From a virus: a stretch of 64,000 bases of DNA. The notes beneath the pieces were generated by a model. It was not told the DNA's origin, did not search any database, and saw only the letters and a program-made list of their open reading frames with translations. A program made the position numbers and the translations under genes. Positions 27,494-58,051 of the stretch are shown here, piece by piece. The stretch covers positions 1-64,000 of the IMG/VR virus record IMGVR_UViG_3300021091_005099; one strand, given 5' to 3'. Within the stretch, counting starts at the first letter, position 1, and each line of letters begins with the position of its first letter.

Positions 27494-27499
27494 TCTGCT

Positions 27500-27528
27500 A
27501 TTATACATATGTTTATGGCCAATATCAA
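27500..27528 (-). promoter_or_regulatory. Sigma70-type promoter TTGATA-N17-TATAAT (probably leaderless transcript)
   Basis: Reverse strand reads ttgata ttggccataaacatatg tataat agcaga ATG. Confidence 0.65.
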
Positions 27529-34303: not shown

Positions 34304-34618
34304 ATGGATATTAAATCTTTGCGTGACCGATCTGACCTCAGCTTTGATATCGCTGTTGCCAAGAAGAATGCACTGGAACGAGCAAAATCTCGTCAGATCG
34401 TAGCATACAACAATCATCTTTTTCATGCTGACGCCGACACCATTAATATTGTCAGTGTATTAAAACAACAGCACGACAGATTTTTCATACTGGATACCAA
34501 TGATAATCCTTGCGAGATCACTGATCCACAAGGATTCTTAGATGTCTTGATACAGCGCAATCAAGAAGCACTCAATGAATATCATCAGTTGCACCAGCGA
34601 TTGAAGAAAAAAATATAA
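34304..34618 (+). CDS. Hypothetical protein
   Basis: 104-aa ORF, first gene after the promoter. Confidence 0.65.
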   Translation: MDIKSLRDRSDLSFDIAVAKKNALERAKSRQIVAYNNHLFHADADTINIVSVLKQQHDRFFILDTNDNPCEITDPQGFLDVLIQRNQEALNEYHQLHQRLKKKI

Positions 34619-34620
34619 AA

Positions 34621-35379
34621 ATGTCAGTGGGAGCATTAATCTACTGTTTCGATTCGGATCAATTGCAATATCATCGCGTTGCTAATTTTTGCATACGTCA
34701 GGTCAAAAGAAATCTAGGGCTGCCTGTCACAGTGGTGACCAATGAGGCCACGAGAAAAAACATACAGGAAGCAGATCGATTAGTACTTGTGGAAAATGCC
34801 CGAGGCAATAAGCGTTATTACAAGAACAGACCCATCCCATGGTACAATCTAGAGAGGGCCATGGCCTATGATCATTCTCCGTATGATACCACCATACTTT
34901 TGGACGCTGATTATTTTGTCTATACCGGCAACTTATTATCATTCACTAACAGCAAATATGATTTTGTGTTGCATGATCGTGTGCATGATCTCACCAACAG
35001 GGGGAGTTTCCTCTATGAGACAAAGAGCATGATACCCTTGGTATGGGCCACAGTGACTATCTTCAAGAAAACTTCCTTCTCCAGGAAAATTTTTGATCTG
35101 ATACAGCACATACAGCAGCATTATGATTATTTCTGTAACCTGTACAGGATAGAGTTTCGTAATTTTAGGAATGATTACGCCTTTGCAATGGCGTTGCATC
35201 AGCTGAACGGATTCACAAAACAGTATTTCATACCATCCGCCATGGCCATGTTGCCCATGGACACGCAAATTTTAAAGATAGACGAGACGGGATTGATATT
35301 CAAACACGACAAATATATGAATTTGATCTCGGATCAGGATGTGCATGTGCTTAACAAGGAGATACCTTTCAATGTCTAA
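34621..35379 (+). CDS. Glycosyltransferase-like protein (GT8-like)
   Basis: AYDHSPYDTTILLDADYF (DxD); WATV; RNDYAFAMA. Confidence 0.7.
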   Translation: MSVGALIYCFDSDQLQYHRVANFCIRQVKRNLGLPVTVVTNEATRKNIQEADRLVLVENARGNKRYYKNRPIPWYNLERAMAYDHSPYDTTILLDADYFVYTGNLLSFTNSKYDFVLHDRVHDLTNRGSFLYETKSMIPLVWATVTIFKKTSFSRKIFDLIQHIQQHYDYFCNLYRIEFRNFRNDYAFAMALHQLNGFTKQYFIPSAMAMLPMDTQILKIDETGLIFKHDKYMNLISDQDVHVLNKEIPFNV

Positions 35380-36178
35380 GGGTTTTCTCTGGTTCGCCCA
35401 GAACAATGACAGCACAGATTATGCCAAACTGAGTGTCGCCCTGGCAAGATCAATCAAGAAAAATTGCAAGATTAATAATGTTTGCGTGATTGTGGACGAG
35501 CATACAAAGATACAGAGCGAATATGTGGACTCGGTGATTGTTTTGAAACAGGATCACAGCCAAGATCAATCATTGAAATTTGCCAACGAACACAAAGCAT
35601 TCAAACTATCACCATTCACCCATACCATAAAATTAGAAGCAGACATGCTGTTCACGCACAATGTCGACTGGTGGTGGAATCATCTGTGTCAGCATGACCT
35701 TGTGTTTGCCGTGAACTGTAGGAACTATCAAGACCAGATAATTAAAAAAACTCCTTATAGGAAATTGTTCCATCAAAATAATCTACCAGATGTTTACAAC
35801 GGACTGACCTATTTTAGGCGCAGTGAAAGAGCCATGCAATTTTTTAAATTGTGCAAAGCCATTACTGATAATTGGACGCAGGTTCAGAATGGGCTATTAA
35901 TAAATTGCCATGAGCAATATCCCTCAACGGACATTGTGTATTCCCTCGCCTACAGGATCATGGATCCTCTCCAAATGCACTTGATAGATTATCCGTGGTT
36001 TAAATTCATACATGGCAAGCCTGAAATAAATGGTGTGGCGAATGCTGTAGATCAATACAATTATCTCAATCCAGTTTTCATGGATGACAGAATGTATGTG
36101 GGAGGACGTAGGTTCGACCGCATTTGGCATTACCATGATAAAAAAATGATAGATATTTTTCATGACAGAATTTTTTAA
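35372..36178 (+). CDS. Glycosyltransferase-like protein (GT8-like paralog, ExD motif)
   Basis: DYAKLSVALARSIK...AFKLSPFTHTIKLEADML...YNGLTYF; start refined to MSKGF. Confidence 0.68.
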   Translation: MSKGFLWFAQNNDSTDYAKLSVALARSIKKNCKINNVCVIVDEHTKIQSEYVDSVIVLKQDHSQDQSLKFANEHKAFKLSPFTHTIKLEADMLFTHNVDWWWNHLCQHDLVFAVNCRNYQDQIIKKTPYRKLFHQNNLPDVYNGLTYFRRSERAMQFFKLCKAITDNWTQVQNGLLINCHEQYPSTDIVYSLAYRIMDPLQMHLIDYPWFKFIHGKPEINGVANAVDQYNYLNPVFMDDRMYVGGRRFDRIWHYHDKKMIDIFHDRIF

Positions 36179-36500
36179 AGCATTAGATAGTTTCAAATCT
36201 GCACCGCCCGATAATAATTTCTATATGGAAGTTATCGAAACAGAGATAGTGTGTCTGCGTAGAGAAGCCAACAACAACACTGTGAAAATTACGCAGGAGC
36301 AATATAAGTTTCTGTTAGAGAATGGCATCAATAATTTTATCTATGATGGTTCTATAGGAAAGAAACATAAAAAAAGAACTCACAGAATATTTTCCTTGCT
36401 GCGTAAAGACGAAAGAGGGTATAATCTTGAACGTAATGATCCCTATTGGCCTATCGAGGTAGTGGAAGGAGGTTACACATGGCGTACACCGTCAGAATAA
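36162..36500 (+). CDS. Hypothetical protein
   Basis: 112-aa ORF overlapping both neighbours in operon fashion. Confidence 0.6.
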   Translation: MTEFFKALDSFKSAPPDNNFYMEVIETEIVCLRREANNNTVKITQEQYKFLLENGINNFIYDGSIGKKHKKRTHRIFSLLRKDERGYNLERNDPYWPIEVVEGGYTWRTPSE

Positions 36501-37375
36501 GTGACCTTGACTTTGTTTTCATCAGCTATCGCGAGCCCAACGCCGACGAGAACTACGCTGACCTGTTGAACATAGTGCCCTGGGCCAAGCGGGTGCATGG
36601 CGTTAAAGGATTTGACAACGCACACAAGGCCGCAGCCGAATGTGCAGAAACAGATTTTTTCATCAGCATAGATGGTGACAACAGGATAGATTCTACCTTT
36701 CTGTTGCAGACATTGGACTGGAGCAAGACCAATCCCGCTGCCGTGCATCGCTGGAGGGCGAGAAACATAATCAACGGACTAGTGTATGGCAATGGTGGAC
36801 TGGTCGGATGGCCAAAGAAGACATGCCTAGGCATGAAAACACATGAGAATGCAGTGGATGAGCGATCCAAGATAGATTTCTGCTGGACCGTGCCACACGA
36901 GAACCTGCACAATGTTTATTCAACAACACACATCAATCACACACCAGAACAGGCCTTCATAGCAGGATACAGGGAAGGGGTAAAAATGAGCCTAGATCGA
37001 GGACAGAAAGTTAATCCCAACGGCTTCATGGAGACAATAGAAACTGTAAATTTGAAAACTTTATTGATATGGATGAGCATCGGACAAGATGTGGACAATG
37101 GCAAGTGGGCGATGCTGGGTGCTAGATGTGGTTGCTACATGGCCACATTGGATACCAACTATGACATCACGTTGGTAAGAGATTTAGAATTTATGAGCGA
37201 CAAGTTTTCTCGCATGATGTATGATATAGAATCTGATATGGCGTCATACGGAAACTCTTTGAGACAGCGCTTGGGGCTGCCTTTGGCGGACCTCGATGCG
37301 GCAGAGAGCAAATTCTATAAGTTCTGCCAACAACCACACAGGAACAAGGGAGTGCAAGATCGTGAAAGCAAGTGA
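36479..37375 (+). CDS. Glycosyltransferase-like protein (GT-A/GT2-like)
   Basis: DFVFISYREPNADENY...RVHGVKGFDNAHKAAA...FISIDGDN (DxD)...NGLVYGNGG; start refined to ATG 36479 after GGAGG. Confidence 0.68.
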   Translation: MAYTVRISDLDFVFISYREPNADENYADLLNIVPWAKRVHGVKGFDNAHKAAAECAETDFFISIDGDNRIDSTFLLQTLDWSKTNPAAVHRWRARNIINGLVYGNGGLVGWPKKTCLGMKTHENAVDERSKIDFCWTVPHENLHNVYSTTHINHTPEQAFIAGYREGVKMSLDRGQKVNPNGFMETIETVNLKTLLIWMSIGQDVDNGKWAMLGARCGCYMATLDTNYDITLVRDLEFMSDKFSRMMYDIESDMASYGNSLRQRLGLPLADLDAAESKFYKFCQQPHRNKGVQDRESK

Positions 37376-38741
37376 TTACAAACACAATGCTGATAAGGCA
37401 CAGAAGAAACTAGATAAAATTAGCCCAAGTTTCTGTCTAGCCAAATGGAATCAGGTGTCACTGCACCTGCCCACGGGACTGACCAATTCCTGCTACCATC
37501 CACCACTCCACGAAATAGATAGAGCAGCGTTGGCTCACAATCCTTCTGCTCTGCACAACACCGCACAGAAGATCTCAGAGAGACGAAAGATGATGGAGGG
37601 GCAAAGGCCCGAAGGATGTTCCTATTGCTGGAATATTGAAGACACCGGGGAGATGAGTGATCGTCATTATCGTAGTGGAGAACCCTGGGCCATGCAGGAT
37701 TTCGAAAAGATAACACAGAACCCCTTCAACCCTGCGCACACACCTTCATATGTGGAAGTCAACTTCAACAATGCCTGCAACTTTAAATGCAGCTATTGTT
37801 CCCCTCAGTTCAGCACCACGTGGGGCAAAGAGATAGATATCTATGGAGAATATCCAACCGAGCCCGCACACAACGCACCCGAACACTTCATGGGGCGCAG
37901 GAAACCAATACCCAACAGAGAAAATAATCCCTACGTGGAGGCGTTCTGGCGCTGGTGGCCGGAACTATACAAGAATTTAAAACATTTCCGCATGACCGGT
38001 GGTGAACCCATGATGGACAGCAACACATATCGGGTGTTTGATTACATTATCAATCATCCCAAACCCGATCTACATCTCAATGTGACATCCAACATGTGTC
38101 CACCCAGAGACAAATTAAAGGATCAATACTTTGACGCTGTCAAGAGGATGTGCCTGGATGGGAGCATCGAGCACTTCATGCAGTTTGTGTCCGTGGATGC
38201 TCATGGATCTCGTGCCAACTACATACGACACGGCATGAATTACAATCAATTGATGGACAATGTGGATGAATTCCTCACACGCATACCTGGCCGTAACAGC
38301 GTGAGTTTCATTATAACTTACAACAATCTCAGTGTGACGTCCCTGGACAAATTGCTAATAAATATTCGTCAATTGAGGCAGAAACATTCCACAACCTATC
38401 AAAGGATATGGTTTGACATACCTTTGCTGCGCCAGCCGGCGTGGCAGCAGATCACTTTGCTTCCGCAAAGTTATCAGCGGATACATGAGCAAAACATTGA
38501 ATATATGAGACAGCATCAAGAGAACACAGAACAGGACAACAAAGATTTTGCTGTGTTCAAGGACTTTGAGATACAAAAGATGCTGCGCAATCTCGCTTAC
38601 TGGCGCAAGCACGCTGAAATAGACAAAGCGCAGAAAAAGAATTTTTACGCATTCTTCTCGGAGCATGATCGTCGACGAGGCACAAGTTTTGAAAACACGT
38701 TTCCTGAGATGAAGGAATTTTGGCAGGAGTGTAAAAGTTAA
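37362..38741 (+). CDS. Radical SAM protein with N-terminal twitch domain (1)
   Basis: FCLAKW...SCYHPP...GCSYCW; CNFKCSYC; MTGGEP; probable GTG start at 37362. Confidence 0.88.
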   Translation: MKASDYKHNADKAQKKLDKISPSFCLAKWNQVSLHLPTGLTNSCYHPPLHEIDRAALAHNPSALHNTAQKISERRKMMEGQRPEGCSYCWNIEDTGEMSDRHYRSGEPWAMQDFEKITQNPFNPAHTPSYVEVNFNNACNFKCSYCSPQFSTTWGKEIDIYGEYPTEPAHNAPEHFMGRRKPIPNRENNPYVEAFWRWWPELYKNLKHFRMTGGEPMMDSNTYRVFDYIINHPKPDLHLNVTSNMCPPRDKLKDQYFDAVKRMCLDGSIEHFMQFVSVDAHGSRANYIRHGMNYNQLMDNVDEFLTRIPGRNSVSFIITYNNLSVTSLDKLLINIRQLRQKHSTTYQRIWFDIPLLRQPAWQQITLLPQSYQRIHEQNIEYMRQHQENTEQDNKDFAVFKDFEIQKMLRNLAYWRKHAEIDKAQKKNFYAFFSEHDRRRGTSFENTFPEMKEFWQECKS

Positions 38742-38749
38742 GGGATATC

Positions 38750-40105
38750 ATGAACGAGAACGCAGATCTGGAATATCGTAAACAAATACTGGACTTATTG
38801 AGTCCTAGTTTCTGTGGAGCCAAATGGTACAACGCCACCATATGGTTGGGATCCGGCATGACTACCAGTTGCCATCATCCACCTGCACATCAAGTGGATG
38901 TGGAGAAATTACGACACAATCCAAGATTGTTGCACAACACTCCTCAGAAGAAACAAGATCGCGCTAAAATGATTGCCGGCGAGAGGCCCGCGGGCTGCGA
39001 ATACTGCTGGAAGATAGAAGACATGGGCAGAGATGCCGTGAGCGATAGAGTTTACAAAAGCAAAATTTATCCAACGGCAGATCTGGAACGGGCATTCAGC
39101 ACTCCCATCACAGAGGACGTTAATCTTAAAACACTGGAGATTGCTTTCGACAGGACCTGTAATTTCGCCTGTTCCTATTGCAATCCTGCTTTCAGCACCA
39201 CGTGGGTGAGAGATATAAAACAACATGGTCCTTATAAAAATTTGATATCAGATGGTAGGAATCATTTCACTCATCCTCATGATGGTGCGCAATTGTACAA
39301 AGACACAGAGGAAAATCCCTACGTTGAAGCTTTCTTTAGATGGTGGGAAACAGATCTGCACAAGACCTTGGACGAGCTGAGGATCACAGGTGGAGAGCCC
39401 ATGATGAGTCCTTCCTTGTGGAGATTGTTGGATTGGTTTGAAACTCAGGGAGAACGTATCAATCCTAAAATGCGATTGGCCATTAACTCTAACCTAGTGC
39501 CCAAGGCAGAATTGTTTGCAAAGTTCATAGATAAATGTCGGAAAATAAAAAATCTACACATCTATACGTCCAATGAATCCACGTATGCCCATTCGGATTA
39601 TATCAGAGACGGCATGGACTATTCTGGCTGGTATGGCAATTTTGCCAATATCATCAATCAGATCAGACCGGCCGGCCTTCACAACATGTGCACCATTAAT
39701 GCACTGTGTCTTGAATCACTTCCCGAATTCCTAGATGTGATAGTAAGAAATAAATTAGATGCCAAGAGGGTGTATGGGGTCAATGTAAATTTCACCTTGA
39801 ACATACTGAGATTTCCTAGTTTCCAATCTCCATTGGTGTTGCCGGACTATCTACGTTCAGAGTTTCGAGATAACCTATCCCGATGGTTGGATATCAATAT
39901 AAAACATTGCGAGTTAATGGAGGTGTCCCACGTGCAGAGATTGATAGATTATCTAGACGTGGTCAAAACGCCTCATTCAGATGCATTCGATTTGCCAAGA
40001 CTAAGGTCTGACTTCAAAAATTTCTATAAACAATATGATGAGCGAAGAGGCAAAGATTTTGCGAAAACATTCGCAAGGATAGGAGAGTGGTACCGTGGCC
40101 TATGA
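38750..40105 (+). CDS. Radical SAM protein with N-terminal twitch domain (2)
   Basis: FCGAKW...SCHHPP...GCEYCW; CNFACSYC; ITGGEP; close paralog of the previous gene. Confidence 0.9.
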   Translation: MNENADLEYRKQILDLLSPSFCGAKWYNATIWLGSGMTTSCHHPPAHQVDVEKLRHNPRLLHNTPQKKQDRAKMIAGERPAGCEYCWKIEDMGRDAVSDRVYKSKIYPTADLERAFSTPITEDVNLKTLEIAFDRTCNFACSYCNPAFSTTWVRDIKQHGPYKNLISDGRNHFTHPHDGAQLYKDTEENPYVEAFFRWWETDLHKTLDELRITGGEPMMSPSLWRLLDWFETQGERINPKMRLAINSNLVPKAELFAKFIDKCRKIKNLHIYTSNESTYAHSDYIRDGMDYSGWYGNFANIINQIRPAGLHNMCTINALCLESLPEFLDVIVRNKLDAKRVYGVNVNFTLNILRFPSFQSPLVLPDYLRSEFRDNLSRWLDINIKHCELMEVSHVQRLIDYLDVVKTPHSDAFDLPRLRSDFKNFYKQYDERRGKDFAKTFARIGEWYRGL

Positions 40106-41387
40106 GTACGGGGCTAAAGAGCCCGAGAAACTGAAGATAAAAAACATGACTACTCGTCAAAAAGAGTTGTTGTTGGATAGCGACACATTCTGTATGCTGC
40201 CATGGATGCATCTGCACGCCTATCCGGATGGTCGAGCATACCCTTGCTGTTTTGCATTTGATGCCTATCATGTGGGAGATTTGAACAAGCAATCTCTTGC
40301 TGAAGTTTTCAATGGTGATAGGATGAAACAGATGCGCTTGAACATGTTGGATAACAAGCCCTGCAAAGAGTGTGGCAAGTGTTATGATCAAGAGAAGGCA
40401 GGGTTTTTCAGCCTGAGATTGAGCTCCAACAAACATTTTGGACACAACGTGGGGTTAGTGGACACAACAAAATCTGATGGCAGTGCAGATTTTGTGATCA
40501 AATACTGGGACATACGATTCAGCAATCTCTGCAACTTCGCCTGTCGCAGTTGTGGAACATGGTTCAGCTCCAACTGGTATGAAGATCATAAAAAACTTAC
40601 AGGTTCGCCTCCTCCACATGCAAAAATTTTGAAAGTAGGCAGAACAGCAGATGACTTGTGGGAACAGATGTTGTCCCAATTCGATCATGTTGAACAGTTC
40701 TATTTCGCAGGTGGTGAACCTTTGATCATGGAAGAACATTATAGAATACTTAAAGAATTAGATAGAAGAAAGATGTACCATGTGAGACTTGTGTACAATA
40801 CCAACTTCAGCAAACTGAAATTCAAAGATATGGACGTGTTAGAGCTTTGGAACAAATTTGACACAGTGTCGGTAGGAGCCAGCCTGGACGCCGAGGGAGA
40901 AAGGGCAGAATTGATGAGAAAAGGCACAGTGTGGAAAGACATAGTGCAAAATAGAAAAAGGATGTTGGAGATATGTCCCAAAGTGGATTTCTACATCAGT
41001 GCTACAGTGGGATTAATAAATGCTCTACATGTTGTTGATTTTCATAGATCATGGATAGATCAAGGACTGATTAGGCCCATGGATTTTAATTTCAACTTGT
41101 TGCAATGGCCCAAGTGGCAGAGGATGGACAATCTACCAAAAGAATATAAGGAACAGGTGGACAAAAAATACAAGCAACACATAGAATGGCTCAAAGGCAA
41201 GGACCCTCTAACCAGAGCGACCAAGGGTTATCAGAGTGCCCTCAATTGGATGTGGATGAAAGATAACACAAAAAATTTACCGTTGTTCTTTGAACAGACA
41301 AGGAAATATGACACTATTAGACAGGAAAATATAGTAGAGGTGTTTAGTGAGTTAAAAGAATTATTTGACGTACATGAAAAGACTTAA
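40095..41387 (+). CDS. Radical SAM protein with N-terminal twitch domain (3)
   Basis: FCMLPW...YPCC...CKECGKC; CNFACRSC; FAGGEP; YNTN. Confidence 0.9.
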   Translation: MAYEYGAKEPEKLKIKNMTTRQKELLLDSDTFCMLPWMHLHAYPDGRAYPCCFAFDAYHVGDLNKQSLAEVFNGDRMKQMRLNMLDNKPCKECGKCYDQEKAGFFSLRLSSNKHFGHNVGLVDTTKSDGSADFVIKYWDIRFSNLCNFACRSCGTWFSSNWYEDHKKLTGSPPPHAKILKVGRTADDLWEQMLSQFDHVEQFYFAGGEPLIMEEHYRILKELDRRKMYHVRLVYNTNFSKLKFKDMDVLELWNKFDTVSVGASLDAEGERAELMRKGTVWKDIVQNRKRMLEICPKVDFYISATVGLINALHVVDFHRSWIDQGLIRPMDFNFNLLQWPKWQRMDNLPKEYKEQVDKKYKQHIEWLKGKDPLTRATKGYQSALNWMWMKDNTKNLPLFFEQTRKYDTIRQENIVEVFSELKELFDVHEKT

Positions 41388-42678
41388 ACCAAACCAAGGC
41401 AATAAAACTTTTTGCATGGCTCCCTGGACCCACACCTATCTATCGCCGCAGACAGAGCGTAGGATCTGTTGCGCCTCGAGGGAGAATGCACAGAGTTTTC
41501 GTCAATACATCGACAGGCATGGAGACTTGAAGGATTATCAGCCTCAAACTTTGGACCAACATTGGAACAACGAGCACATGAAAAGTGTAAGGACTAGAAT
41601 GATGTCCGGTGAGACATTGGCAGAATGTCAGGTGTGCAACGACAAATTACTCAATACCGACGTGTATCGTGACTATTTCAATCATCTGTTCCGCAACAAG
41701 ATTGACGATGCTTTTGAAAAGACCGACGACACCGGATACACTGAGATGAAGACTGTGAGTTTTGATTATAGATTTAATAATCTTTGTAATTTCAAATGCC
41801 GGCAATGCGGTGATATGTTAAGTTCAAGCTGGGAATCAGAACAAAGAAGCCATGATATGTGGTCCCCGGAGAGGCAGCCCTGGATGGCAGCGCCACTGAG
41901 ACAACAGATCTCATATTTTCAAGACAGCACCGTGGTGTTAGAGTTCATGAATGCAATAGAGGACAAGCGCATGGAGGAGATATATTGGGTTGGTGGAGAG
42001 CCCTTGATGTGGGACATACACTGGACAGCAATGGACAGAATCATTCAATTAAAATTCAGCGACAGGGTATACGTAAGATACAACACTAACCTAAGTCGCA
42101 CACAATTCAAGGGCAAAAAACTTTTCGATCTTCTTGGACATTTCAGAGATTGGCAGGTCTGTGCGTCACTAGATGGCACAGGAGAAATAGGAGAATACAT
42201 AAGGACCGGACTTGACTATGAAAAATTTCTAGCAAATTTCAAGGAGGGACTATCAGTTGCCCGAAATAAAAGACAGATGCAGTTAGACTTCACGATAACC
42301 ATGCCCGGAATGCAGGAGATACGTAGCATGTTTGACCTATCGCAGCAATTGAACGCTAAACTATTGACCAAGGTTACCTTTGCTTTTGACTCACAGCAGA
42401 TTATGTCTCCCATGTGTCTGCCAAAGCCGCTTTTGCATCAACTGATCGATGAAAATTTAGATTACATTAAACCAAGAGCGACTGCTATGCAAAAGAGCTT
42501 AGTAGATGTGCTAGAAAACATGAAGACACGTCCAACTTTCTGGGAGGAGTACCCAAAAGCAGAAATAGGTATCCGCTCAGGAAAAAAAAGATGTGAAAAA
42601 ATTGACACGATACGTGGAACAGATATAAAAAAAATATTGATAGACGAAAGATTATTAGAATGGTGGAAAAATATCTAA
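41374..42678 (+). CDS. Radical SAM protein with N-terminal twitch domain (4)
   Basis: FCMAPW...RICC...ECQVC; CNFKCRQC; WVGGEP; YNTN; start refined to ATG 41374. Confidence 0.9.
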   Translation: MKRLKPNQGNKTFCMAPWTHTYLSPQTERRICCASRENAQSFRQYIDRHGDLKDYQPQTLDQHWNNEHMKSVRTRMMSGETLAECQVCNDKLLNTDVYRDYFNHLFRNKIDDAFEKTDDTGYTEMKTVSFDYRFNNLCNFKCRQCGDMLSSSWESEQRSHDMWSPERQPWMAAPLRQQISYFQDSTVVLEFMNAIEDKRMEEIYWVGGEPLMWDIHWTAMDRIIQLKFSDRVYVRYNTNLSRTQFKGKKLFDLLGHFRDWQVCASLDGTGEIGEYIRTGLDYEKFLANFKEGLSVARNKRQMQLDFTITMPGMQEIRSMFDLSQQLNAKLLTKVTFAFDSQQIMSPMCLPKPLLHQLIDENLDYIKPRATAMQKSLVDVLENMKTRPTFWEEYPKAEIGIRSGKKRCEKIDTIRGTDIKKILIDERLLEWWKNI

Positions 42679-43829
42679 AATCTAACTTATGTGTGCTGCC
42701 GTGGACTTCCTTGGAAGTTGACGTGAATGGCTCTGCGTCACCTTGTTGCCTATACAAAGGAGAAATAGGTGATTTCAAAGTTTACAAAGACGATCTACAT
42801 AAAATACAAAATTCAAAATACATGAATGAGTTGAGAGATCAATTCCGCAATGGCGAACGTCCCGCAGGTTGTACCAGTTGTTGGCAGGAAGAGGATGCGG
42901 GCAAAATATCAAAGAGAATGAACAGCTATTATAAAATGAAAAATAGTTTGAATGGGTGGACCCCAGAATCAAAACCATCTCTTAAATTTATTGATTTCAA
43001 ATTGGGCAATATATGCAATCTCAAATGCCGCATATGTGGCAGTTACAGCAGTTCCAAATGGGCCCAGGAAGAATTAGATTATGGCGCGAATCCCGTCGCC
43101 AAACAAAACCTAGATTCTGGCCAATGGCCCAAACGTAATCCTGCCTTTTTCGAAGACATCAAACCCGTGTTGAAAGATGTGGAGTACTTTGAATTCACGG
43201 GCGGTGAACCCATGATGATAGAAAATCATTTCAAGATATTGGAGCATTGCATTGAAAATGAATATTCAAAAAAGCAATATCTACATTACAACACCAATGG
43301 CACCAAGTGTCCACCATTGAAAGTGTTTTGGATGTGGAGCCAATTTAAGAACGTTGAGATAGCATTCAGTATCGACGATACCGAGGCAGCTTTCGAATAC
43401 CAGAGACATCCAGCAAGCTGGCAAGAGGTGCAAGACAATTTAAAGGAGTACAAAAACTTTGTGGGCAGCAACAACATTGATTTTCAAATATGCTCGACTA
43501 TAAACATTTTCAACATTCTAAGTTTAGATAGATTATTATATTGGGTGAAAGAATTCAATCCAAAATATTTTCATGTGAATACGCTGTTTGCTCCGGACTG
43601 CTTTAACATTCAAACATTGCCCAAGCAGCTCAAAAAAGTTGTGACAGAAAAATACCAACATCTACCTCCCTACAGGTCCATAATCAATTTTATGAACATG
43701 TCGGACAGGCATTCTCATGAAATGGACGCGGAAAGGAAAAGAAGGATAAGACGGACAGATGAGTATAGGCAAGAAAAATTTTCTGAAATATTTCCAGCGT
43801 TAAATAATTTTTTAAGGATATATGAATAA
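42660..43829 (+). CDS. Radical SAM protein with N-terminal twitch domain (5)
   Basis: LCVLPW...SPCC...GCTSCW; CNLKCRIC; FTGGEP; YNTNG. Confidence 0.9.
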   Translation: MVEKYLKSNLCVLPWTSLEVDVNGSASPCCLYKGEIGDFKVYKDDLHKIQNSKYMNELRDQFRNGERPAGCTSCWQEEDAGKISKRMNSYYKMKNSLNGWTPESKPSLKFIDFKLGNICNLKCRICGSYSSSKWAQEELDYGANPVAKQNLDSGQWPKRNPAFFEDIKPVLKDVEYFEFTGGEPMMIENHFKILEHCIENEYSKKQYLHYNTNGTKCPPLKVFWMWSQFKNVEIAFSIDDTEAAFEYQRHPASWQEVQDNLKEYKNFVGSNNIDFQICSTINIFNILSLDRLLYWVKEFNPKYFHVNTLFAPDCFNIQTLPKQLKKVVTEKYQHLPPYRSIINFMNMSDRHSHEMDAERKRRIRRTDEYRQEKFSEIFPALNNFLRIYE

Positions 43830-44613
43830 AATTTTACTGGCAGGTGGATGCAGTTTCACTTTTGGTAACGAATTGAGCGATGATAATGGAAAAAATCCAT
43901 CCGCAAAATCCTGGTCGGCTCTACTGGCCAAAGAAACAAATGCCAAATATATTTGCGTGGCGAAGCCAGGAATAGGCAACTCTGCAATAGCAAGGAGGAT
44001 CTTTTCCTATGTTTCATCCAATCCCACCAAGGACGTCTTTGTTACCGCCATGTGGAGTTTCTTATCACGCTATGATTGGGCCATGCCAAGACACCATGTT
44101 CTTGAAGGGACTAGATGGGCCTCAATCACGCCATGGGACACTTCCGACAATCAGGCAGAAGTACAAAAAACATTGTGCACCAGTGAGCCCCAATTGGAGG
44201 AATGGAAAAGGCGCAGGGAGGACATGAAGAGCACAGGAGTTGGGCCGTTCGCTGATGCCCTTTATCGTCACGCCGCGAACCAATATCACGAAGCATATCT
44301 CAGCTGGAAGAGCATCGTGTGGCTGCAGAATATCTTGGAAAAGAAAGATGTGCCCTACATGTTCACTTTGGCTGATAACAGTTTATTTTGGCAAGGGTTT
44401 GAGCCATTGCATGCAGTTGATTCTTTGCTGAATGGTCTATATAATGAAATAAATTTTGATAAATGGATTTTTTTTGGAGATAGGCAAATGGGATTCAATC
44501 AATGGTCAATAATGAAAGAATATCCTCGGGCCACCACGCATCCGCTTGATTTGGCACACGCTGATGCAGTGGCACTTATACGCAATAAATTTTTAAAATT
44601 GTATCAACAATAG
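43822..44613 (+). CDS. SGNH/GDSL hydrolase-like protein
   Basis: Block I AGGCSFTFG, block II AKPGIGN, C-terminal THP...H. Confidence 0.65.
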   Translation: MNKILLAGGCSFTFGNELSDDNGKNPSAKSWSALLAKETNAKYICVAKPGIGNSAIARRIFSYVSSNPTKDVFVTAMWSFLSRYDWAMPRHHVLEGTRWASITPWDTSDNQAEVQKTLCTSEPQLEEWKRRREDMKSTGVGPFADALYRHAANQYHEAYLSWKSIVWLQNILEKKDVPYMFTLADNSLFWQGFEPLHAVDSLLNGLYNEINFDKWIFFGDRQMGFNQWSIMKEYPRATTHPLDLAHADAVALIRNKFLKLYQQ

Positions 44614-44621
44614 GAGAAAAT

Positions 44622-44726
44622 ATGTTCAATTGGTTAAAATCTTTAATACAAAGAATAAAATTAGAAAGACAGTACCGCAAACGTTTGAAAGAATTAAGAA
44701 AGAAAGATCCCTTCATATACAAGTAA
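44622..44726 (+). CDS. 34-aa basic peptide MFNWLKSLIQRIKLERQYRKRLKELRKKDPFIYK, not in the ORF track
   Basis: SD AGGAG; the stop lies 1 nt before the carbamoyltransferase ATG. Confidence 0.75.
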   Translation: MFNWLKSLIQRIKLERQYRKRLKELRKKDPFIYK

Positions 44727-44727
44727 A

Positions 44728-46194
44728 ATGAGAACTCTGGGAATAAATTGCCTGAATCATGACGCAGCCATGGCTGTAATCGATGGAGGCGAGATATTAT
44801 GGGCCGCGCACTCGGAAAGATATAGCAAAATAAAAAATGATGAATATCTTAACTGGGATATAGTGAACGAGGCCAAGTTGTTTGGGCCATGGGATCGCGT
44901 GGTTTATTACGAAAAACCCATATTGAAAAAAACGAGGCAGATTTACGCGGGGCAATGGGCCGAAGTCTTCAATCGAGCCAACATGCCACAAAGTTACCTG
45001 CAAAATTTTAACATCAAAATAGATCAATATTGCGGGCATCACGAATCTCATGCGGCGGGAGGCTTCTATACGTCACCTTTTAATGAGGCAATGGTGCTTA
45101 CGGTTGACGCCATAGGAGAATGGGAAACCACCACGATATGGCAGGCAAGTGACAAAAAATTAGAGAAGTGTTACAGCATGAAGTATCCACATTCGTTGGG
45201 AGTGCTTTATTCTGCATTTACCCAGCGTGTTGGATTGAAACCCGCAGAAGAAGAATATATTTTGATGGGAATGTCTGCGTATGGACAACCAAAATATGTT
45301 TCTAACATTTACAAAGATCTGTTGCAATGGGACGGAGATTTTATCTTAAAAAAAAATTTGCATAGAGGACTTGGCGATTGGCTGCCGGAAGCGGATTCGA
45401 TGGACTTGGCGGCAAGCATACAGCAAGTTATGGAGCTGGAATTAGAGAAACTATGGAGAAAGGCACGCAAGCACATATCTGTTGGGCATGCAAGGAATTT
45501 GGTTTATGGTGGTGGCGTGGCACTGAATTGTGTGGCGAACACCAAGTTGGCGGATTTGGATCTATTCGATAACATATGGATCATGCCCAATCCCGGAGAT
45601 GCCGGCAGCTCCATAGGCTGCATCGCGGCCGCTGAACGTAAACACATCAATTGGCGTCATCCTTTCCTTGGGCACCGCATAGAGGGCGAATATCCTGTAG
45701 ATAGCATTATAAAGGAATTGGAAACCAATCGCATGGTGGGTGTGGCCAACGGCCGGGCAGAGTTTGGTCCAAGGGCGCTTGGTAATAGATCTTTGCTGGC
45801 CGATCCCAGAGGCAACGACATAAAGGATTTGGTAAATCAAATCAAAAAAAGACAGGAATTTCGACCATTTGCGCCGGCCATATTGGAGGAGGATCTAAGA
45901 GACTATTTTGAGGTTCCTAAGTGCGTTGTAAACACCCCTTATATGCAATTTATAGGCATTTGCAAGCATGGTAAAGACTTTCCTGCCATAATACATCATG
46001 ACGGCACCAGCCGTGTGCAAACAGTGAATAAAACAGACAATCCGGGCTTTTACCAACTGTTAAAAACATGGAAGGAAAAGACCGGCTGTCCCATGCTGCT
46101 GAACACATCTCTCAACATCAAAGGTGAGCCCATTGTGAATGATAGTTTGGATGCAAAACGTTTCGAAACCAAGTATAATGTGAAAGTGCTATGA
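44728..46194 (+). CDS. O-carbamoyltransferase, NodU/CmcH/TobZ family
   Basis: HDAAMA...SERYSKIKND; HHESHAA; LMGMSAYG; GGVALNC; PGDAG; EFGPRALGNRSLLADP; FRPFAP; LLNTSLN. Confidence 0.93.
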   Translation: MRTLGINCLNHDAAMAVIDGGEILWAAHSERYSKIKNDEYLNWDIVNEAKLFGPWDRVVYYEKPILKKTRQIYAGQWAEVFNRANMPQSYLQNFNIKIDQYCGHHESHAAGGFYTSPFNEAMVLTVDAIGEWETTTIWQASDKKLEKCYSMKYPHSLGVLYSAFTQRVGLKPAEEEYILMGMSAYGQPKYVSNIYKDLLQWDGDFILKKNLHRGLGDWLPEADSMDLAASIQQVMELELEKLWRKARKHISVGHARNLVYGGGVALNCVANTKLADLDLFDNIWIMPNPGDAGSSIGCIAAAERKHINWRHPFLGHRIEGEYPVDSIIKELETNRMVGVANGRAEFGPRALGNRSLLADPRGNDIKDLVNQIKKRQEFRPFAPAILEEDLRDYFEVPKCVVNTPYMQFIGICKHGKDFPAIIHHDGTSRVQTVNKTDNPGFYQLLKTWKEKTGCPMLLNTSLNIKGEPIVNDSLDAKRFETKYNVKVL

Positions 46195-46523
46195 AAATAG
46201 AAGGTAATTTTGAAGTTGGCGGAACCATTGTCAAGCAGGATGATCGCTATGTGGTCAAGGACAATAACCTGTTGAAGAATTTGATCTTGAGCAGCACCAG
46301 GCTCAATCCAGGCAAGCAGACCACTGGTCATAGACATGCCGGGCAGGAGGAGGTGTACTTGTTCGTGGAAGGCAATGGTGAAATGCTGTTGGATGATAGG
46401 CGCTTTCCAGTGAGCAAGGGAGATATAGTGTTGATAGAAGACGGAGTTTTCCATAGAGTTTACAACACCACTGAATCGGAGCTCTATTTCGTTTGCGTGT
46501 TTGATGGCAGGAGGACGATATGA
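46191..46523 (+). CDS. Cupin-domain protein
   Basis: GHRHAGQEEVYLFVEG...GDIVLIEDGVFHRVYN. Confidence 0.85.
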   Translation: MKIEGNFEVGGTIVKQDDRYVVKDNNLLKNLILSSTRLNPGKQTTGHRHAGQEEVYLFVEGNGEMLLDDRRFPVSKGDIVLIEDGVFHRVYNTTESELYFVCVFDGRRTI

Positions 46524-47488
46524 AAATATTTGTTACTGGAGGAGAAGGTTTTATAGGCAGCTGGATTGTGGAAAAATTAAGCAACAATGGACATGAGGTA
46601 GGCACTATGGACAATCTTGATACCTATGGAGTGATAAGCGAGAATAAACTTGATCAATTGTGTAGATGGAGGAGACGCAACTGGAAAAAGGTAACGAGAT
46701 TTTTCGGCAATGTTAATAGTCCAGAATCCTATTATCTTTTGACTCCAAAGAATGCACTCAAGGCGATGCAGGAATCGGAGGTTGTGATACACCTGGCATC
46801 TTTTCCCAGGGCCAAAATAGTCAACGAAGATCCGCAGCAAGGTGTCAATAATATTGTGGGCGGTACAACTAACATGCTGAATCTGTGTAAGTGCACCAAA
46901 GTTAAAAGATTTGTTTTTGTGTCCTCCAGCATGATCTATGGAAATTTCAAAGATGGCACTAAAGAGGACATGCCTGCCAGCCCAATTAATGTTTATGGGC
47001 AAGCAAAACTTGCTGCAGAAAAAATGACTGAATTATTTGGCAGGGTACATGGACTGGAATACGTCATCGTGCGGCCCAGTGGAGTGTATGGGCCAGGAGA
47101 TATTCCAGATAGAGTCTTGAGCAAGTTTTTTGACGCCGCCATGCGAGGTAAAGATATTGTGGTCCATGATAAGCGCAACAAAGTTGACTTCACATATGTG
47201 GAGGACGCGGCCGATGGCATCATCAGTTGTGCCCTTGGTAAACAAGCCGCGAATAAAATATTCAATATCACTGCCGGCGGTGCGACCAGTTTGGGAGAAG
47301 CGGCAGAGAAGATTATTAAATTGACCGGCAGCAGCAGCAAAATAAAAGACACAGGCCAGAATAGTCTGTATCCTGAAAGAGGCACACTTGATATATCTTC
47401 GGCCGTGAAATTACTGAAATACAAACCCAAACACAGTTTTGAACAGGGAATAAAAAAATATTATGAATGGTTACAAGATAAAATTTAA
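46520..47488 (+). CDS. NAD-dependent NDP-sugar epimerase/dehydratase
   Basis: TGGEGFIG; FVSSSMIYG; YGQAK (YxxxK); VYGPG; DFTYVED. Confidence 0.9.
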   Translation: MKIFVTGGEGFIGSWIVEKLSNNGHEVGTMDNLDTYGVISENKLDQLCRWRRRNWKKVTRFFGNVNSPESYYLLTPKNALKAMQESEVVIHLASFPRAKIVNEDPQQGVNNIVGGTTNMLNLCKCTKVKRFVFVSSSMIYGNFKDGTKEDMPASPINVYGQAKLAAEKMTELFGRVHGLEYVIVRPSGVYGPGDIPDRVLSKFFDAAMRGKDIVVHDKRNKVDFTYVEDAADGIISCALGKQAANKIFNITAGGATSLGEAAEKIIKLTGSSSKIKDTGQNSLYPERGTLDISSAVKLLKYKPKHSFEQGIKKYYEWLQDKI

Positions 47489-48524
47489 TGGTCTTGAACG
47501 TATCTATGATCGTTACAAGCAGGAACTGGATGAACAAGCTCGGAAGTCCTGGCAGTCAGGACAGGCAATCCTGGGCGAGCAGACTGAAAAACTGCAACAC
47601 AACATAGCCAAAAAATACGGAAGGCGATACGCGGTTGCGGTTGGCAGCGCGACAGATGGAGTGTATTTTGCCCTAAGGTCATCTGGCATCGGCCGGGGAA
47701 ATAAAGTTTTTTGCCCGGTGCTCAGCTATGTGGCCACCTCAGGAGCTATACGCAGGGCTGGCAGCGAGATCAGATTTATCGACACAGACGGCTACGGCAA
47801 CATAGGAAATTTTCCTTTTGGAGAGAGACCAGATGCCTTGGTGTATGTCAATCTGTATGGCAACACGGCAGATTATGACAGAATAAAATCATTCTGCCAG
47901 GAGAATAAAGTTGTATTGATAGAGGATGCCGCACAATCTCAAGGGGCGTATTATAGAGACATTCCCTCCGGAGCCATGGGAGACGTCAGCGTGTTCTCGT
48001 TCGATCCCATGAAGAACATGCCCAGCTTCGGTTCTGGTGGCATGGTGCTCACAGATGACGAGCTGGTGTGCAGGCGGGTGATGTCTCTCAGGAGACATGC
48101 CGTCAAGAGCGACGACTTCGATCATGGATACAACAGCGTAATATCAGAAGATCATGCCGGACAGCTCAACGTTTTGTTGTATCACTATGATGAGCTGCAG
48201 ATGGATCGTGAGCGCGTTGCACTCAGATATTATTCTAACCTGCCGAAAAGTATTTTCATACGCGGAGATGGAAAAAATAAAAGTAGCTACCATAAATTGG
48301 TCATGCTGTCCGAGCACAGGAATGAGCTTAAAGAACATCTTGAACAGCAGGGCATAGAAACAAAAATACATTACGCGGAAATACTGGACCCTGCCAATTT
48401 GGGTTTTTACCCTGTGGCAGAAAATATATGCAGAGGTGCCCTTAGCATGCCAATATATCCGTTTCTAAGCGATGACGAAATAGATTACATATGCGATAAG
48501 ATCGAGGATTTTTATGGCGTTTGA
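47463..48524 (+). CDS. DegT/DnrJ/EryC1/StrS family PLP-dependent sugar aminotransferase
   Basis: AVGSATDG; IEDAAQSQG; FSFDPMKN...GGMV; LSMPIYP. Confidence 0.92.
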   Translation: MNGYKIKFNGLERIYDRYKQELDEQARKSWQSGQAILGEQTEKLQHNIAKKYGRRYAVAVGSATDGVYFALRSSGIGRGNKVFCPVLSYVATSGAIRRAGSEIRFIDTDGYGNIGNFPFGERPDALVYVNLYGNTADYDRIKSFCQENKVVLIEDAAQSQGAYYRDIPSGAMGDVSVFSFDPMKNMPSFGSGGMVLTDDELVCRRVMSLRRHAVKSDDFDHGYNSVISEDHAGQLNVLLYHYDELQMDRERVALRYYSNLPKSIFIRGDGKNKSSYHKLVMLSEHRNELKEHLEQQGIETKIHYAEILDPANLGFYPVAENICRGALSMPIYPFLSDDEIDYICDKIEDFYGV

Positions 48525-49815
48525 TTGTATTTGTGTTGATTTTCAAAACGCCACGGAAAATTTAAAAATCATCAAAGATCGCATGCCCCAGGCAAGGGTG
48601 ATACCTTTTGTCAACAGCTACATGGAAATTTTGCGATCCATGGTCAGAGACTCAAGGACCTCACAGGTATGGATGCTGTCAACTCTTGTGGACTACAGCA
48701 CATTTGATTTTGATTACATTCCAGAACAACACCAAGACAGACAGCTACATGTGTGGGCCAGCGCGGGGCAGAAGGAAGGGGACACGCTATTAATACCACG
48801 GGATGATTTTTTAAAACAGGAAGTACATTTGAAATTTCTAAGAGATTACACCGACATCAATTACCATGACTCTGCTCTGTGCTACTCGGCATGGCCTACG
48901 AGGCAGTTCAAGTTCGATGACTTGATTGAACAGGTGCGGGTGCAGAAAGAGCTGTATGTGAATTATTATTACAGAGATCCTGTTCAGCATGTGCCTTCAT
49001 TTTGGGAGGACATCAAGTTATATTGTTTGAACAGCAATAGATTAAATCTTTTGGTTCCAAGATTCTTCGTAAGGGAAGAATTACATGAATACTCACCAAA
49101 GCTATTGTCAAACGAGGCATCTGGTGGTCTGTATTTTGATATCGTGTTCATACATAACAATGAACCTCAACACAGAGAAAATTATGAAGCCCTGCTGTCA
49201 GCCACCAAAGGAAAACCAAACGCTGTGAAGATAGTGGCAGGAGTTTCCGGTAGGAACCAGGCCTATCGCGCTGCGGCCAATATCAGCGACACCGAGTATT
49301 TCTATGCGGTGTTCGCCAAGATAAGAACAAATCCTAATTTTGGGTTTGATTTCACGCCTGACACCCTTAAATCTCCTAGGCATTACATATTCGACTGCTA
49401 CAACCCTGTCATAGATTACACGTATGGACATCAGGCCATAATACTATACAACAAGAAAATGGTTTTGCAAAACCCAGGCACGGGACTAGATTTCACACTA
49501 TCTCAAAAGCATGATCATGTGAAGTTATTAAGTGCTGAAACCACCTTTCATCTTGATCCGCAAGTGGCATACAGGACTGCATTCAGAGAAGTGGTGAAAC
49601 TGCTTTACGCCCAAAAGATGCAGCCCACAGTGGAAGGCAATCATATTTTACTTAAATGGTACACAGAGTCTGACAAGCATAACTCAAGTTATGTGCGTGC
49701 TGCCTATGAAGATGCCGTGTCTTTTGTGAAACAATACGCGGGTGATTTTGAAAAGTTATTACAAAGTTATGAGTGGGAATATGTTGATAGTCTATATCAG
49801 CAACGATACAATTAA
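48514..49815 (+). CDS. Glycosyltransferase-like protein (paralog of 36479, DxD lost)
   Basis: C-terminal half DIVFIHNNEP...ENY...VAGVSGRNQAYRAAA...FYAVFAK...AYRTAFREVVKL aligns with the 36479 gene. Confidence 0.6.
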   Translation: MAFDCICVDFQNATENLKIIKDRMPQARVIPFVNSYMEILRSMVRDSRTSQVWMLSTLVDYSTFDFDYIPEQHQDRQLHVWASAGQKEGDTLLIPRDDFLKQEVHLKFLRDYTDINYHDSALCYSAWPTRQFKFDDLIEQVRVQKELYVNYYYRDPVQHVPSFWEDIKLYCLNSNRLNLLVPRFFVREELHEYSPKLLSNEASGGLYFDIVFIHNNEPQHRENYEALLSATKGKPNAVKIVAGVSGRNQAYRAAANISDTEYFYAVFAKIRTNPNFGFDFTPDTLKSPRHYIFDCYNPVIDYTYGHQAIILYNKKMVLQNPGTGLDFTLSQKHDHVKLLSAETTFHLDPQVAYRTAFREVVKLLYAQKMQPTVEGNHILLKWYTESDKHNSSYVRAAYEDAVSFVKQYAGDFEKLLQSYEWEYVDSLYQQRYN

Positions 49816-58043: not shown

Positions 58044-58051
58044 ATCCACAC

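Follow-up and report, generated by a model that had tools for sequence, protein, structure and literature searches.

A freshwater phage operon of tandem N-twitch radical SAM enzymes, glycosyltransferase-like proteins, and a carbamoyltransferase with a partner peptide: a candidate glycan-tailoring system

INTRODUCTION

What does a phage make with five radical S-adenosylmethionine (SAM) enzymes encoded in tandem directly behind its tail fiber genes, and on which molecule do they act? The question is raised by an operon at positions 34304 to 49815 of the window, by which we mean the whole 64,000-nucleotide stretch analyzed here, the first 64 kb of the 113,993-base IMG/VR virus record IMGVR_UViG_3300021091_005099. 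With a CheckV completeness of 32%, the record suggests that the parent virus is a jumbo phage with a genome of roughly 350 kb, and 98 to 99% of sampled words are shared with 20 lake-water or freshwater metagenome runs, which thus hold near-identical sequence. An initial annotation, made from the letters alone, had read the gene run as a system that builds a heavily modified glycan and attaches it to tail or baseplate proteins. We view the system as a variant of virus-encoded glycosylation that has at its center a large uncharacterized radical SAM family and a carbamoyltransferase for which a partner peptide is predicted. Evidence from association lends good support to the glycan-tailoring reading, which is probably correct; the virion is the leading, though tentative, target.

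The same gene classes have been seen in the same place in uncultured aquatic T4-like and jumbo myophages: GT8 genes and radical SAM cassettes were noted in the tail fiber hypervariable region of pelagimyophages (PMC7029224). That work is at the annotation level, takes the genes to modify the host O-chain, and does not include an analysis of the radical SAM family, the GT-A family, the peptide, or the bacterial context. New here are the bacterial O-polysaccharide context, the domain fusions, the fold-level glycosyltransferase (GT) assignments, the absence of membrane components, the split organization in a cultured phage, and a codon-level test of the peptide.

RESULTS

Five ancient N-twitch radical SAM paralogues in one operon

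The operon comprises 17 open reading frames (ORFs), all on the plus strand (Table 1), joined by overlaps of 4 to 80 nucleotides (nt) or gaps of 1 to 8 nt. A 50-nt gap separates it from the last fiber-like structural gene, and its 3' end is convergent with a minus-strand gene at 49812. The gene list first drawn up for this run after the last tail gene is right except for the ORF at 34304 to 34618, coding for 104 amino acids (aa), which it had passed over.

All five radical SAM proteins (RS1 to RS5), initially called as tandem twitch enzymes, are full-length members of the NCBIfam family NF033640 (N_Twi_rSAM, "twitch domain-containing radical SAM protein"), scoring 287 to 410 bits (E values of 1e-85 to 1e-122) against a curated cutoff of 170 bits, with the twitch cysteines conserved. 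The family is named but has no assigned reaction. Pfam finds Radical_SAM in all five proteins and an N-terminal SPASM domain (residues 11 to 96) in three. In an alignment of 25 NF033640 members from phages and bacteria, C33, C93, C96, C146, C150, C153, G206-G207-E208, N237, S263, and R275 are invariant and C52 is at least 90% conserved, so that RS1 to RS5 share the four-Cys N-terminal twitch, the CxxxCxxC motif, and the GGE motif. The SAM-cluster motif C146xxxC150xxC153 sits after the twitch cysteines C33, C52, C93, and C96, an order that fits a predicted four-Cys auxiliary cluster lying N-terminal to the SAM cluster.

The five proteins are only 17 to 27% identical to one another where BLAST aligns them, whereas their orthologues in related phages are 43 to 94% identical; the array is therefore old and not a recent duplication, and the operon carries the family as a set of old paralogues. 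RS2 is the most conserved copy, at 64 to 94% identity across relatives and 90 to 94% in the closest. The family as a whole is large, with 9,397 representatives at 50% identity and an E value of ≤1e-30, many of which are double-module fusions. Many of the best-scoring members (P0211 to P0240) are 790 to 1,400 aa long with two or three complete N-twitch modules per chain, and the tandem arrangement is thus, to judge from these chains, sometimes fixed as a gene fusion. In the literature searched there is no mention of NF033640 or of an N-terminal twitch/SPASM arrangement.

The initial annotation had likened these enzymes to BtrN, the butirosin 2-deoxy-scyllo-inosamine dehydrogenase, and to aminoglycoside biosynthesis at large. 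This analogy stands for the auxiliary domain, with profile positions 21 to 96 matching the twitch domain of BtrN at residues 169 to 258 (E value, 0.003); the cysteine spacing C-x18-C-x40-C-x2-C is one that we take to be similar to that of BtrN. It fails elsewhere: the twitch domain lies C-terminal to the core in BtrN but is permuted to the N terminus in the phage enzymes, the operon has no cyclitol pathway genes, and the radical SAM core resembles SkfB, viperin, and anSME at least as closely as it does BtrN. A profile search of the PDB places that core nearest to SPASM/twitch-clade enzymes (8vpo, SkfB, viperin, anSME, and BlsE), and RS3 alone gave no significant match in such a search.

Bacterial relatives are encoded among sugar-modifying genes

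NF033640 is rare in bacteria: of the genomes sampled, 2 of 400 further Pseudomonadota had members, as did 4 of 400 further Bacteroidota and none of 14 controls. All six bacterial loci examined hold sugar- or glycan-modifying genes, in agreement with the sugar-tailoring role first proposed. The most informative is a chromosomal contig of genome G106 (L110), flanked by dnaE and accA, with an O-polysaccharide cluster that codes for RmlC, RmlD, Wzm, a fusion of Wzt to an N-twitch radical SAM enzyme, and three more tandem copies of the latter, along with a TylF-type O-methyltransferase, another methyltransferase, and a WbsX glycosyltransferase. The Wzt part of the fusion has both the ABC domain and the Wzt_C carbohydrate-binding domain. 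In genome G177 a single N-twitch enzyme adjoins a GT2 protein and an epimerase. The four Bacteroidota loci carry, respectively, four copies with a GDSL-like protein, a methyltransferase-GT2 fusion, and a GT22-like protein; two copies with a polysaccharide deacetylase, a GT11-like protein, three GDSL-like proteins, a B12-radical SAM protein, and a carbamoyltransferase; two copies with Fe/2-oxoglutarate dioxygenases, a methyltransferase, and a surface protein sorted by type IX secretion; and one copy with a methyltransferase and an MptE-like/GT1 protein.

The Wzt fusion was found only once and is thus an anecdote rather than a recurrent architecture, but it is supported by other NF033640 fusions recovered in a database search, to a tectonin lectin, to an EryCIII-like GT (below the Pfam cutoff), and to class I and FkbM methyltransferases. 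Since radical SAM, SGNH/GDSL-like, carbamoyltransferase, and GT genes occur as a set both in the phage and in Bacteroidota, and carbohydrate-binding fusions exist, sugar-bearing substrates are much likelier than peptides. NF033640 substrates are thus likely to be sugar bearing, and probably bound to a polymer or carrier, and we infer that sugars are likely what the phage radical SAM enzymes act upon.

A scan of genome contigs gave short ones binned into metagenome-assembled genomes (MAGs) and 36 to 74% identical to the phage; those at 70 to 74% are most likely misbinned phage DNA and were dropped as bacterial context. Four of them (L085 to L088, in Verrucomicrobia, Betaproteobacteria, Flavobacterium, and Rickettsiales MAGs) are 7 to 18 kb long, with four to seven N-twitch genes each that are 70 to 74% identical to RS3; two also hold an SGNH-like gene and the peptide.

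Glycosyltransferase-like proteins

Pfam, PHROG, and NCBIfam have no match for the products of the operon genes at 34304, 34621, 35372, 36162, 36479, 43822, and 48514, or of the structural gene at 33285. The four GT calls of the initial annotation thus find no counterpart among the hidden Markov models, and their backing comes from the GT-A fold and paralogy in two families. The AlphaFold2 (AF2) model of the 34621 protein (pLDDT, 92.3) has 324 Foldseek matches in the PDB at an E value of ≤1e-3, led by GlyE, glycogenin, LgtC, and the UGGT catalytic domain, the top matches having a probability of 1.0 and TM scores of 0.42 to 0.55. Its D95-A-D97 motif includes an invariant D97, and D185 is also invariant. 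At an E value of ≤0.01 it matches neither the family model Glyco_transf_8 of Pfam nor any PHROG or NCBIfam model, and we therefore call the protein GT8-like rather than a GT8 member. The true start of its neighboring paralogue is probably 35372, in an ORF that opens at 35339.

The 36479 protein (probable true start within an ORF opening at 36446) represents a new phage GT-A family with more than 7,000 metagenome homologues, none of them annotated, and relatives on 443 IMG/VR contigs. D65-G-D67 is invariant. Its AF2 model (pLDDT, 90.6) matches SunS, PBCV-1 A64R, WrtF, and K4CP in Foldseek; in the VIA comparison it matches B4GALNT1 (Z score, 10.5; root mean square deviation, 3.0; 142 residues aligned) and many other GT-A enzymes (Z scores of 8.5 to 10), including A64R (Z score, 8.5). 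A viral structure library returned viral GT2-like proteins, one of them from mycobacteriophage Che8, and a sequence-profile search of the PDB with the family gave no significant match. The fourth protein, that of 48514, has no DxD motif, with AVFAKI aligning to SIDGDN of the 36479 protein, and Atlas places it in viral hypothetical clusters only.

Sugar-nucleotide enzymes, carbamoyltransferase, and a 34-aa micro-protein

The carbamoyltransferase, cupin, epimerase, and DegT calls all rest on clear Pfam matches, as initially annotated. The extended short-chain dehydrogenase/reductase (SDR) reaches no NCBIfam equivalog; neither does the aminotransferase, whose best NCBIfam match is PseC, below the PseC cutoff. 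The small cupin is a possible keto-sugar isomerase or epimerase. The carbamoyltransferase, with a Kae1-like N-terminal and a YrdC-like C-terminal domain, falls below the NCBIfam NodU equivalog (145 versus 1000 bits); it is 47% identical to ORF199 of Ralstonia phage RsoM2USA and 31% identical to the Bacteroidota homologue adjoining N-twitch radical SAM genes.

The 43822 protein had been called an SGNH hydrolase. All of 11 homologues retain S11, G50, N53, and H246, which would correspond to SGNH blocks I, II, III, and V, and the canonical GDS occurs in one of them; the nearest Atlas clusters offer a lead, being viral with DUF6071 in 33 to 36% of their members and Lipase_GDSL in 10% of one cluster. 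No family model is matched, and the label SGNH-like is reasonable but not established.

Between the SGNH-like gene and the carbamoyltransferase gene lies an ORF of 34 codons. In nine phages, 17 of the 34 residues of its product are invariant, including Tyr18-Arg-Lys-Arg, Lys23-Glu-Leu, and the final KKDPFIYK; 12 of these 17 are encoded by more than one codon, and the neighboring proteins in the same phages are just 57 to 83% identical. On this comparison of codons, the ORF is a real gene under selection at the peptide level. One related locus, L019, has two copies of the micro-protein gene (19441 to 19540 and 20713 to 20814), the second ending in KKKDPYVYK. The micro-protein was not found in the bacterial loci, including the carbamoyltransferase-bearing one, or in the more distant phage loci fetched, which have the GT/radical SAM core and no carbamoyltransferase detected.

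Modeled as a complex with the carbamoyltransferase, the micro-protein has a median score of 0.72, compared with 0.00 for the best of three controls. It thereby passes the mark set for such models, which was attained by 58 of the 80 solved complexes and 2 of the 110 mismatched pairs used for calibration. Of the three runs, two passed and the third scored 0.00; contact agreement between runs is at least 0% and the partner pLDDT is at least 55. Tail residues 28 to 34 lie against carbamoyltransferase residues 9 to 11, 71 to 79, 128 to 129, 159 to 173, and 212 to 214, within the Kae1-like domain and beside the invariant H11/D12 and D127. The model supports binding of the micro-protein to the carbamoyltransferase, as a putative subunit or substrate alike. 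We also considered the tail as a clamp-binding tail, as on DpdA and polymerase, and rejected this, as those end in SLFEGG and RLFEVA, unlike DPFIYK.

Conservation across phages and a cultured representative

When operon proteins were compared by tblastn with 80 related viral loci, the closest relatives (GT-A gene 66 to 91% identical) had the whole operon in the same order wherever the fetched DNA extends far enough. In distant contigs of up to 285 kb (44 to 47% identical), what remains is a core of one or, often, two GT8-like genes and the GT-A gene, along with additional GT-A paralogues; an RS1-type radical SAM gene follows in about a third of these loci. For 48 loci the upstream sequence extends over at least 5 kb, and in 29 of these the fiber N-terminal motif GQLW[YF][DN] is present on the same strand within 10 kb upstream; it is downstream in none.

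The operon has no megablast match among GenBank phages. In 50,697 GenBank phage records, RS2, the GT8-like protein, and the GT-A protein were found only in RsoM2USA; RS3 as the query found additional weak (∼22% identical) radical SAM genes in two Vibrio phages. RsoM2USA ORF355 to ORF348 code for a fiber-like protein, a small protein, two GT8-like proteins, the GT-A protein, RS1, and a GT-A paralogue, and this block lies inside the structural module, near tail sheath ORF359 and ORF356, a structural protein confirmed by mass spectrometry (PMC8504454). About 90 kb away, ORF203 to ORF199 include two SGNH-like genes flanking RS2 (ORF202, 50%), the peptide, one further gene, and the carbamoyltransferase. 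Two submodules can therefore be told apart: the GTs and RS1 make up one, whereas RS2 belongs with the SGNH-like protein, peptide, and carbamoyltransferase in the other. All of these core genes are annotated as hypothetical in RsoM2USA.

The virion genes upstream of the operon code for a baseplate hub protein (Phage_base_V), a very large structural protein, and three paralogous fibers whose shared N-terminal module has the motifs M.YT[IV]NKT, G[KR]GY.G[YF]GE, and GQLW[YF]D and whose distal parts differ, which suggests several putative receptor-binding fibers sharing one adaptor. The last of the three (31670) ends in a Peptidase_G2-type chaperone domain (Pfam). These structural proteins are acidic, with 17 to 25% Ser+Thr. 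The fiber-like 33285 protein has weak similarity to RsoM2USA ORF355, which itself also resembles fiber N termini.

Table 1. Features of the operon, its surroundings, and the RsoM2USA peptide homologue (coordinates are those of the window unless a record is named)
Feature	Coordinates	Strand	Remarks
Structural protein, 4654 aa	6332-20296	+	Upstream of operon
Three paralogous fiber proteins	20978-22201, 27594-29114, 31670-33283	+	Common ∼100-residue N-terminal module
Last fiber-like structural gene, candidate acceptor	33285-34253	+	322 aa; pI 4.5; 25.5% Ser+Thr; Ser/Thr-rich C terminus
Conserved small protein, 104 aa	34304-34618	+	No family match; kept in 18 related loci, weakly in RsoM2USA ORF354
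GT8-like retaining GT-A glycosyltransferase 1 (predicted)	34621-35379	+	AF2 fold; DAD motif
GT8-like GT-A glycosyltransferase 2 (predicted), paralogue of 34621	35372-36178	+	BLASTP E value 9e-7; co-conserved in 63 loci
Conserved small protein, 112 aa	36162-36500	+	Conserved in related loci; no Pfam match
Putative GT of new phage GT-A family, 298 aa	36479-37375	+	N-terminal GT-A domain, C-terminal helical domain
N-twitch radical SAM RS1	37296-38741	+	NF033640, 320 bits; orthologue that travels with GT genes (RsoM2USA ORF349, 35% identity)
N-twitch radical SAM RS2	38750-40105	+	NF033640, 287 bits; most conserved copy
N-twitch radical SAM RS3	40095-41387	+	NF033640, 410 bits; Pfam SPASM at 33-96 plus Radical_SAM
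N-twitch radical SAM RS4	41365-42678	+	NF033640, 308 bits
N-twitch radical SAM RS5	42660-43829	+	NF033640, 352 bits
SGNH-like esterase/acyltransferase candidate, 263 aa	43822-44613	+	Conserved Ser-Gly-Asn-His residues
Basic micro-protein, 34 aa	44622-44726	+	C terminus KKDPFIYK; predicted carbamoyltransferase partner or substrate
NodU/CmcH/TobZ-type carbamoyltransferase, 488 aa	44728-46194	+	Carbam_trans_C 181 bits, Carbam_trans_N 150 bits, both over cutoff
Small cupin, 110 aa	46191-46523	+	Cupin_2, 56 bits
Extended SDR, NDP-sugar epimerase/dehydratase family	46520-47488	+	Epimerase, 144 bits; no NCBIfam equivalog reached
DegT/DnrJ/EryC1 sugar aminotransferase	47463-48524	+	207.5 bits, above family cutoff
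Two-domain protein with GT-A-like C-terminal half	48514-49815	+	Paralogue of 36479 domain, BLASTP E value 1e-12
7-Deazaguanine-type locus	56522-63685	-	FolE (GTP cyclohydrolase I), QueE-like radical SAM, GMP reductase, GalE-like SDR, GT-B-like protein
Micro-protein homologue, unannotated 32-codon ORF	RsoM2USA MG752970.1, ∼125,894-125,989 (L002:14204-14299)	-	Ends in RKQDPFIYK; between ORF201 and ORF200, upstream of ORF199

DISCUSSION

A proposed cytoplasmic glycan-building and -tailoring system

An enzyme set for building and tailoring sugars beside the tail genes was proposed at the outset, and the GT-A folds, the bacterial context, and the deep synteny with fiber genes all agree with it. None of the 17 operon proteins has a hydrophobic segment, and none matches an initiating phosphoglycosyltransferase, flippase, polymerase, ligase, or transporter family in Pfam or NCBIfam. 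The reactions would therefore take place in the cytoplasm, with either a soluble acceptor or host intermediates at the inner membrane face as substrates. Our overall explanation is that an abundant freshwater jumbo myophage uses the operon to build and tailor a glycan in the cytoplasm with no lipid carrier, and we regard its chances of being right as about even.

The two GT8-like enzymes and the new-family GT-A enzyme, with its motif-less paralogue, would transfer sugars from host nucleoside diphosphate (NDP)-sugars to a soluble acceptor, and the SDR, cupin, and DegT enzymes would supply an amino-sugar donor. Each N-twitch enzyme would use its CxxxCxxC cluster for SAM cleavage and would remove a hydrogen from a sugar residue, with the fully Cys-ligated N-terminal twitch cluster as a presumptive electron conduit; epimerization, oxidation, dehydration, and C-C chemistry are candidate outcomes. 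The SGNH-like protein may add or remove an acyl group, and the carbamoyltransferase with its 34-aa partner peptide would O-carbamoylate a hydroxyl. The acceptor would most likely be a tail fiber or baseplate virion protein encoded just upstream. We infer every one of these individual reactions.

Virion glycosylation systems of this general kind exist: the Che8-type GT operons, PBCV-1 A64R, and the mimivirus fibril likewise have GT-A enzymes encoded next to structural genes, and A64R and the Che8 glycosyltransferase are fold matches to the 36479 protein. Mimivirus also has a DegT-type amino-sugar branch, as does the phage operon. These systems differ from the present candidate system in having no radical SAM enzymes, SGNH-like protein, or carbamoyltransferase with a partner peptide. 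The initial statement that no phage pathway of this type had been biochemically characterized holds for pathways with a radical SAM enzyme but needs qualifying for glycosylation as such, as mycobacteriophage GTs have been shown to glycosylate virions (Freeman 2023, as cited in PMC12619734).

If the substrates are indeed sugars, the family would offer a new set of radical glycan-editing reactions. The chemistry of the phage particle or of the host surface would likewise gain a new layer, with possible effects on adsorption, host range, and grazing or immune recognition. NF033640 is a large enzyme family in which the auxiliary domain is permuted to the N terminus from its usual C-terminal form, and its phage members are arrayed as old paralogues in aquatic jumbo phages that are very abundant. 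The presence of the core genes in one cultured phage, RsoM2USA, makes the system testable.

The target of the product

The conserved position behind fiber genes, in RsoM2USA too, together with the acidic, Ser/Thr-rich structural proteins, makes virion proteins the best candidate acceptors. Synteny and the absence of membrane and lipid-carrier components make the virion the leading reading of the target, which we hold tentatively and at somewhat less than an even chance. A possible sequon was sought in the structural proteins (2817 to 23233, plus strand, mainly the 4654-aa protein), where DGS[ST] occurs 15 times in 10,024 residues against 1.0 expected (z score, 14.5), compared with 2 times in 27,346 residues of nonstructural proteins; reversed and Asn/Glu control motifs are flat. 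Most of the sites lie in the 4654-aa protein within a common strand context, G-DGST-xx[FY]x[LT], and DGS[ST] was set aside as a glycosylation sequon, since a repeated strand or fold motif explains it as well and conservation could not discriminate. Virions of the related phage XacN1 contain glycoproteins (PMC5852040), but tblastn finds no homologue of the module in XacN1, which is thus a precedent only.

Several observations, the set-aside sequon included, weigh against virion glycosylation. The bacterial homologues belong to lipid-linked O-polysaccharide pathways and not to protein glycosylation, and SPASM/twitch enzymes are often peptide maturases, with an invariant peptide gene present in the operon. 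The GT calls are made from fold and paralogy alone, and NF033640 and these GT families are assigned by fold, sequence, and context. IspD and MobA nucleotidyltransferases score nearly as high (Z score, ∼9) against the 36479 model as GTs do, and its transferase activity is therefore only putative. Within the window, sigma-70 promoter and terminator scans are at chance level (50 versus 43.5 and 13 versus 16.3, respectively), and co-transcription with late genes is therefore not supported; the T4 late-promoter motif TATAAATA is absent. In pelagimyophages, synteny with fiber genes has been taken to mark a "hypervariable region" for host recognition, in which the GTs would act on the O-chain of the host (PMC7029224), and the contig covers about a third of the genome.

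Some of these points are shared with the strongest rival, in which the substrates would be lipid-linked intermediates of the host O-antigen or capsule, modified at the cytoplasmic face. The cell surface would thereby be altered in the course of a long infection, either for superinfection exclusion or to prevent trapping of progeny on debris. Bacterial N-twitch enzymes sit in O-polysaccharide clusters, in one case fused to the exporter ATPase Wzt, and GT8 enzymes are typical of lipopolysaccharide (LPS), with LgtC among the top fold matches of the 34621 protein; the published reading of the pelagimyophage GT8/radical SAM cassettes is of this kind (PMC7029224). The Wzm/Wzt clusters have tandem N-twitch enzymes among rml genes, methyltransferases, and GTs, but the phage operon differs from them in having no transporter or lipid-carrier enzymes, and the Pfam and hydrophobic-segment scans give no membrane protein, flippase, bactoprenol GT, or ligase. 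Moreover, the GT-A protein is 64 to 86% identical in thousands of metagenome proteins and 44 to 47% identical in distant jumbo phages, a conservation unusual for enzymes tracking variable O-antigens, and the operon keeps its position within the structural module. Remodeling of the host envelope is thus unlikely, although it is the alternative we take most seriously.

The peptide itself could be the product: the micro-protein would be the substrate or scaffold, and its KKDPFIYK tail would receive a sugar and a carbamoyl group and undergo editing, with RS2 and the SGNH-like protein as the minimum set of enzymes, to give a glycopeptide, or something akin to a ribosomally synthesized and posttranslationally modified peptide. 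Selection on the micro-protein at the peptide level, the conservation of the RS2/SGNH-like/peptide/carbamoyltransferase neighborhood in RsoM2USA apart from the GTs, and the modeled tail beside the invariant H11/D12 and D127 of the Kae1-like domain all speak for this, as does the frequency of peptide maturases among SPASM/twitch enzymes (NCBIfam side matches); the GT8 enzyme glycogenin primes on a tyrosine. But the peptide was not found in the bacterial loci or in the more distant phage loci fetched, so that the radical SAM family does not depend on its presence. There is also no leader/core architecture, protease, or exporter, and a stable subunit would fit the complex model equally well. We judge a peptide-centered product improbable.

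A related view joins the peptide to the favored glycan chemistry, with the RS2/SGNH-like/peptide/carbamoyltransferase submodule forming a peptide-primed assembly line in which a sugar would be attached, radically edited, and carbamoylated before its use or its transfer to the virion. The invariant tail (Tyr33/Lys34) would serve as a soluble, lipid-free carrier, primed by the GT8-like enzymes in the manner of glycogenin. We give this view little credence; if it is true, the N-twitch enzymes are a large unexplored class that edits carrier- or polymer-attached sugars.

DNA hypermodification, in which a modified base would be decorated with the edited glycan against restriction, is similarly doubtful. 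All operon proteins are soluble and cytoplasmic, and hypermodification of DNA with diverse glycans is a common activity of phage GTs (Pyle 2024, as cited in PMC12619734). The contig, however, already holds a 7-deazaguanine-type locus with its own GT-B-like and GalE-like genes, which lies 7 kb downstream of the operon and suggests a glycosylated deazaguanine base made independently of it. A hydroxymethylase, TET, or kinase is detected by Pfam neither within the operon nor next to it, the operon has no DpdA, the bacterial homologues are in polysaccharide clusters, and the conserved neighbors are fiber genes and not replication genes.

A diffusible aminoglycoside-like metabolite made during infection is scarcely credible, as the likeness of the twitch radical SAM, DegT, carbamoyltransferase, and GT genes to aminoglycoside pathways and the BtrN twitch match are offset by the lack of a cyclitol synthase, resistance, or exporter gene in the operon, by bacterial relatives in O-polysaccharide rather than antibiotic clusters, and by the location of the operon inside the virion gene module.

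Other genes in the window

We note that a five-gene cassette on the minus strand (23713 to 27508) is inserted among the plus-strand tail genes. Its last gene (26480 to 27508, minus strand) codes for a 342-aa radical SAM protein whose best match is the NF033640 core (profile positions 107 to 278; E value, 2e-12), far below the family cutoff and with no N-terminal twitch domain; the other four proteins of the cassette have no family match. Downstream of the operon, at 51291 to 53641 on the minus strand, a MoxR-type AAA ATPase adjoins a DUF2201 metallopeptidase-like/VWA protein.

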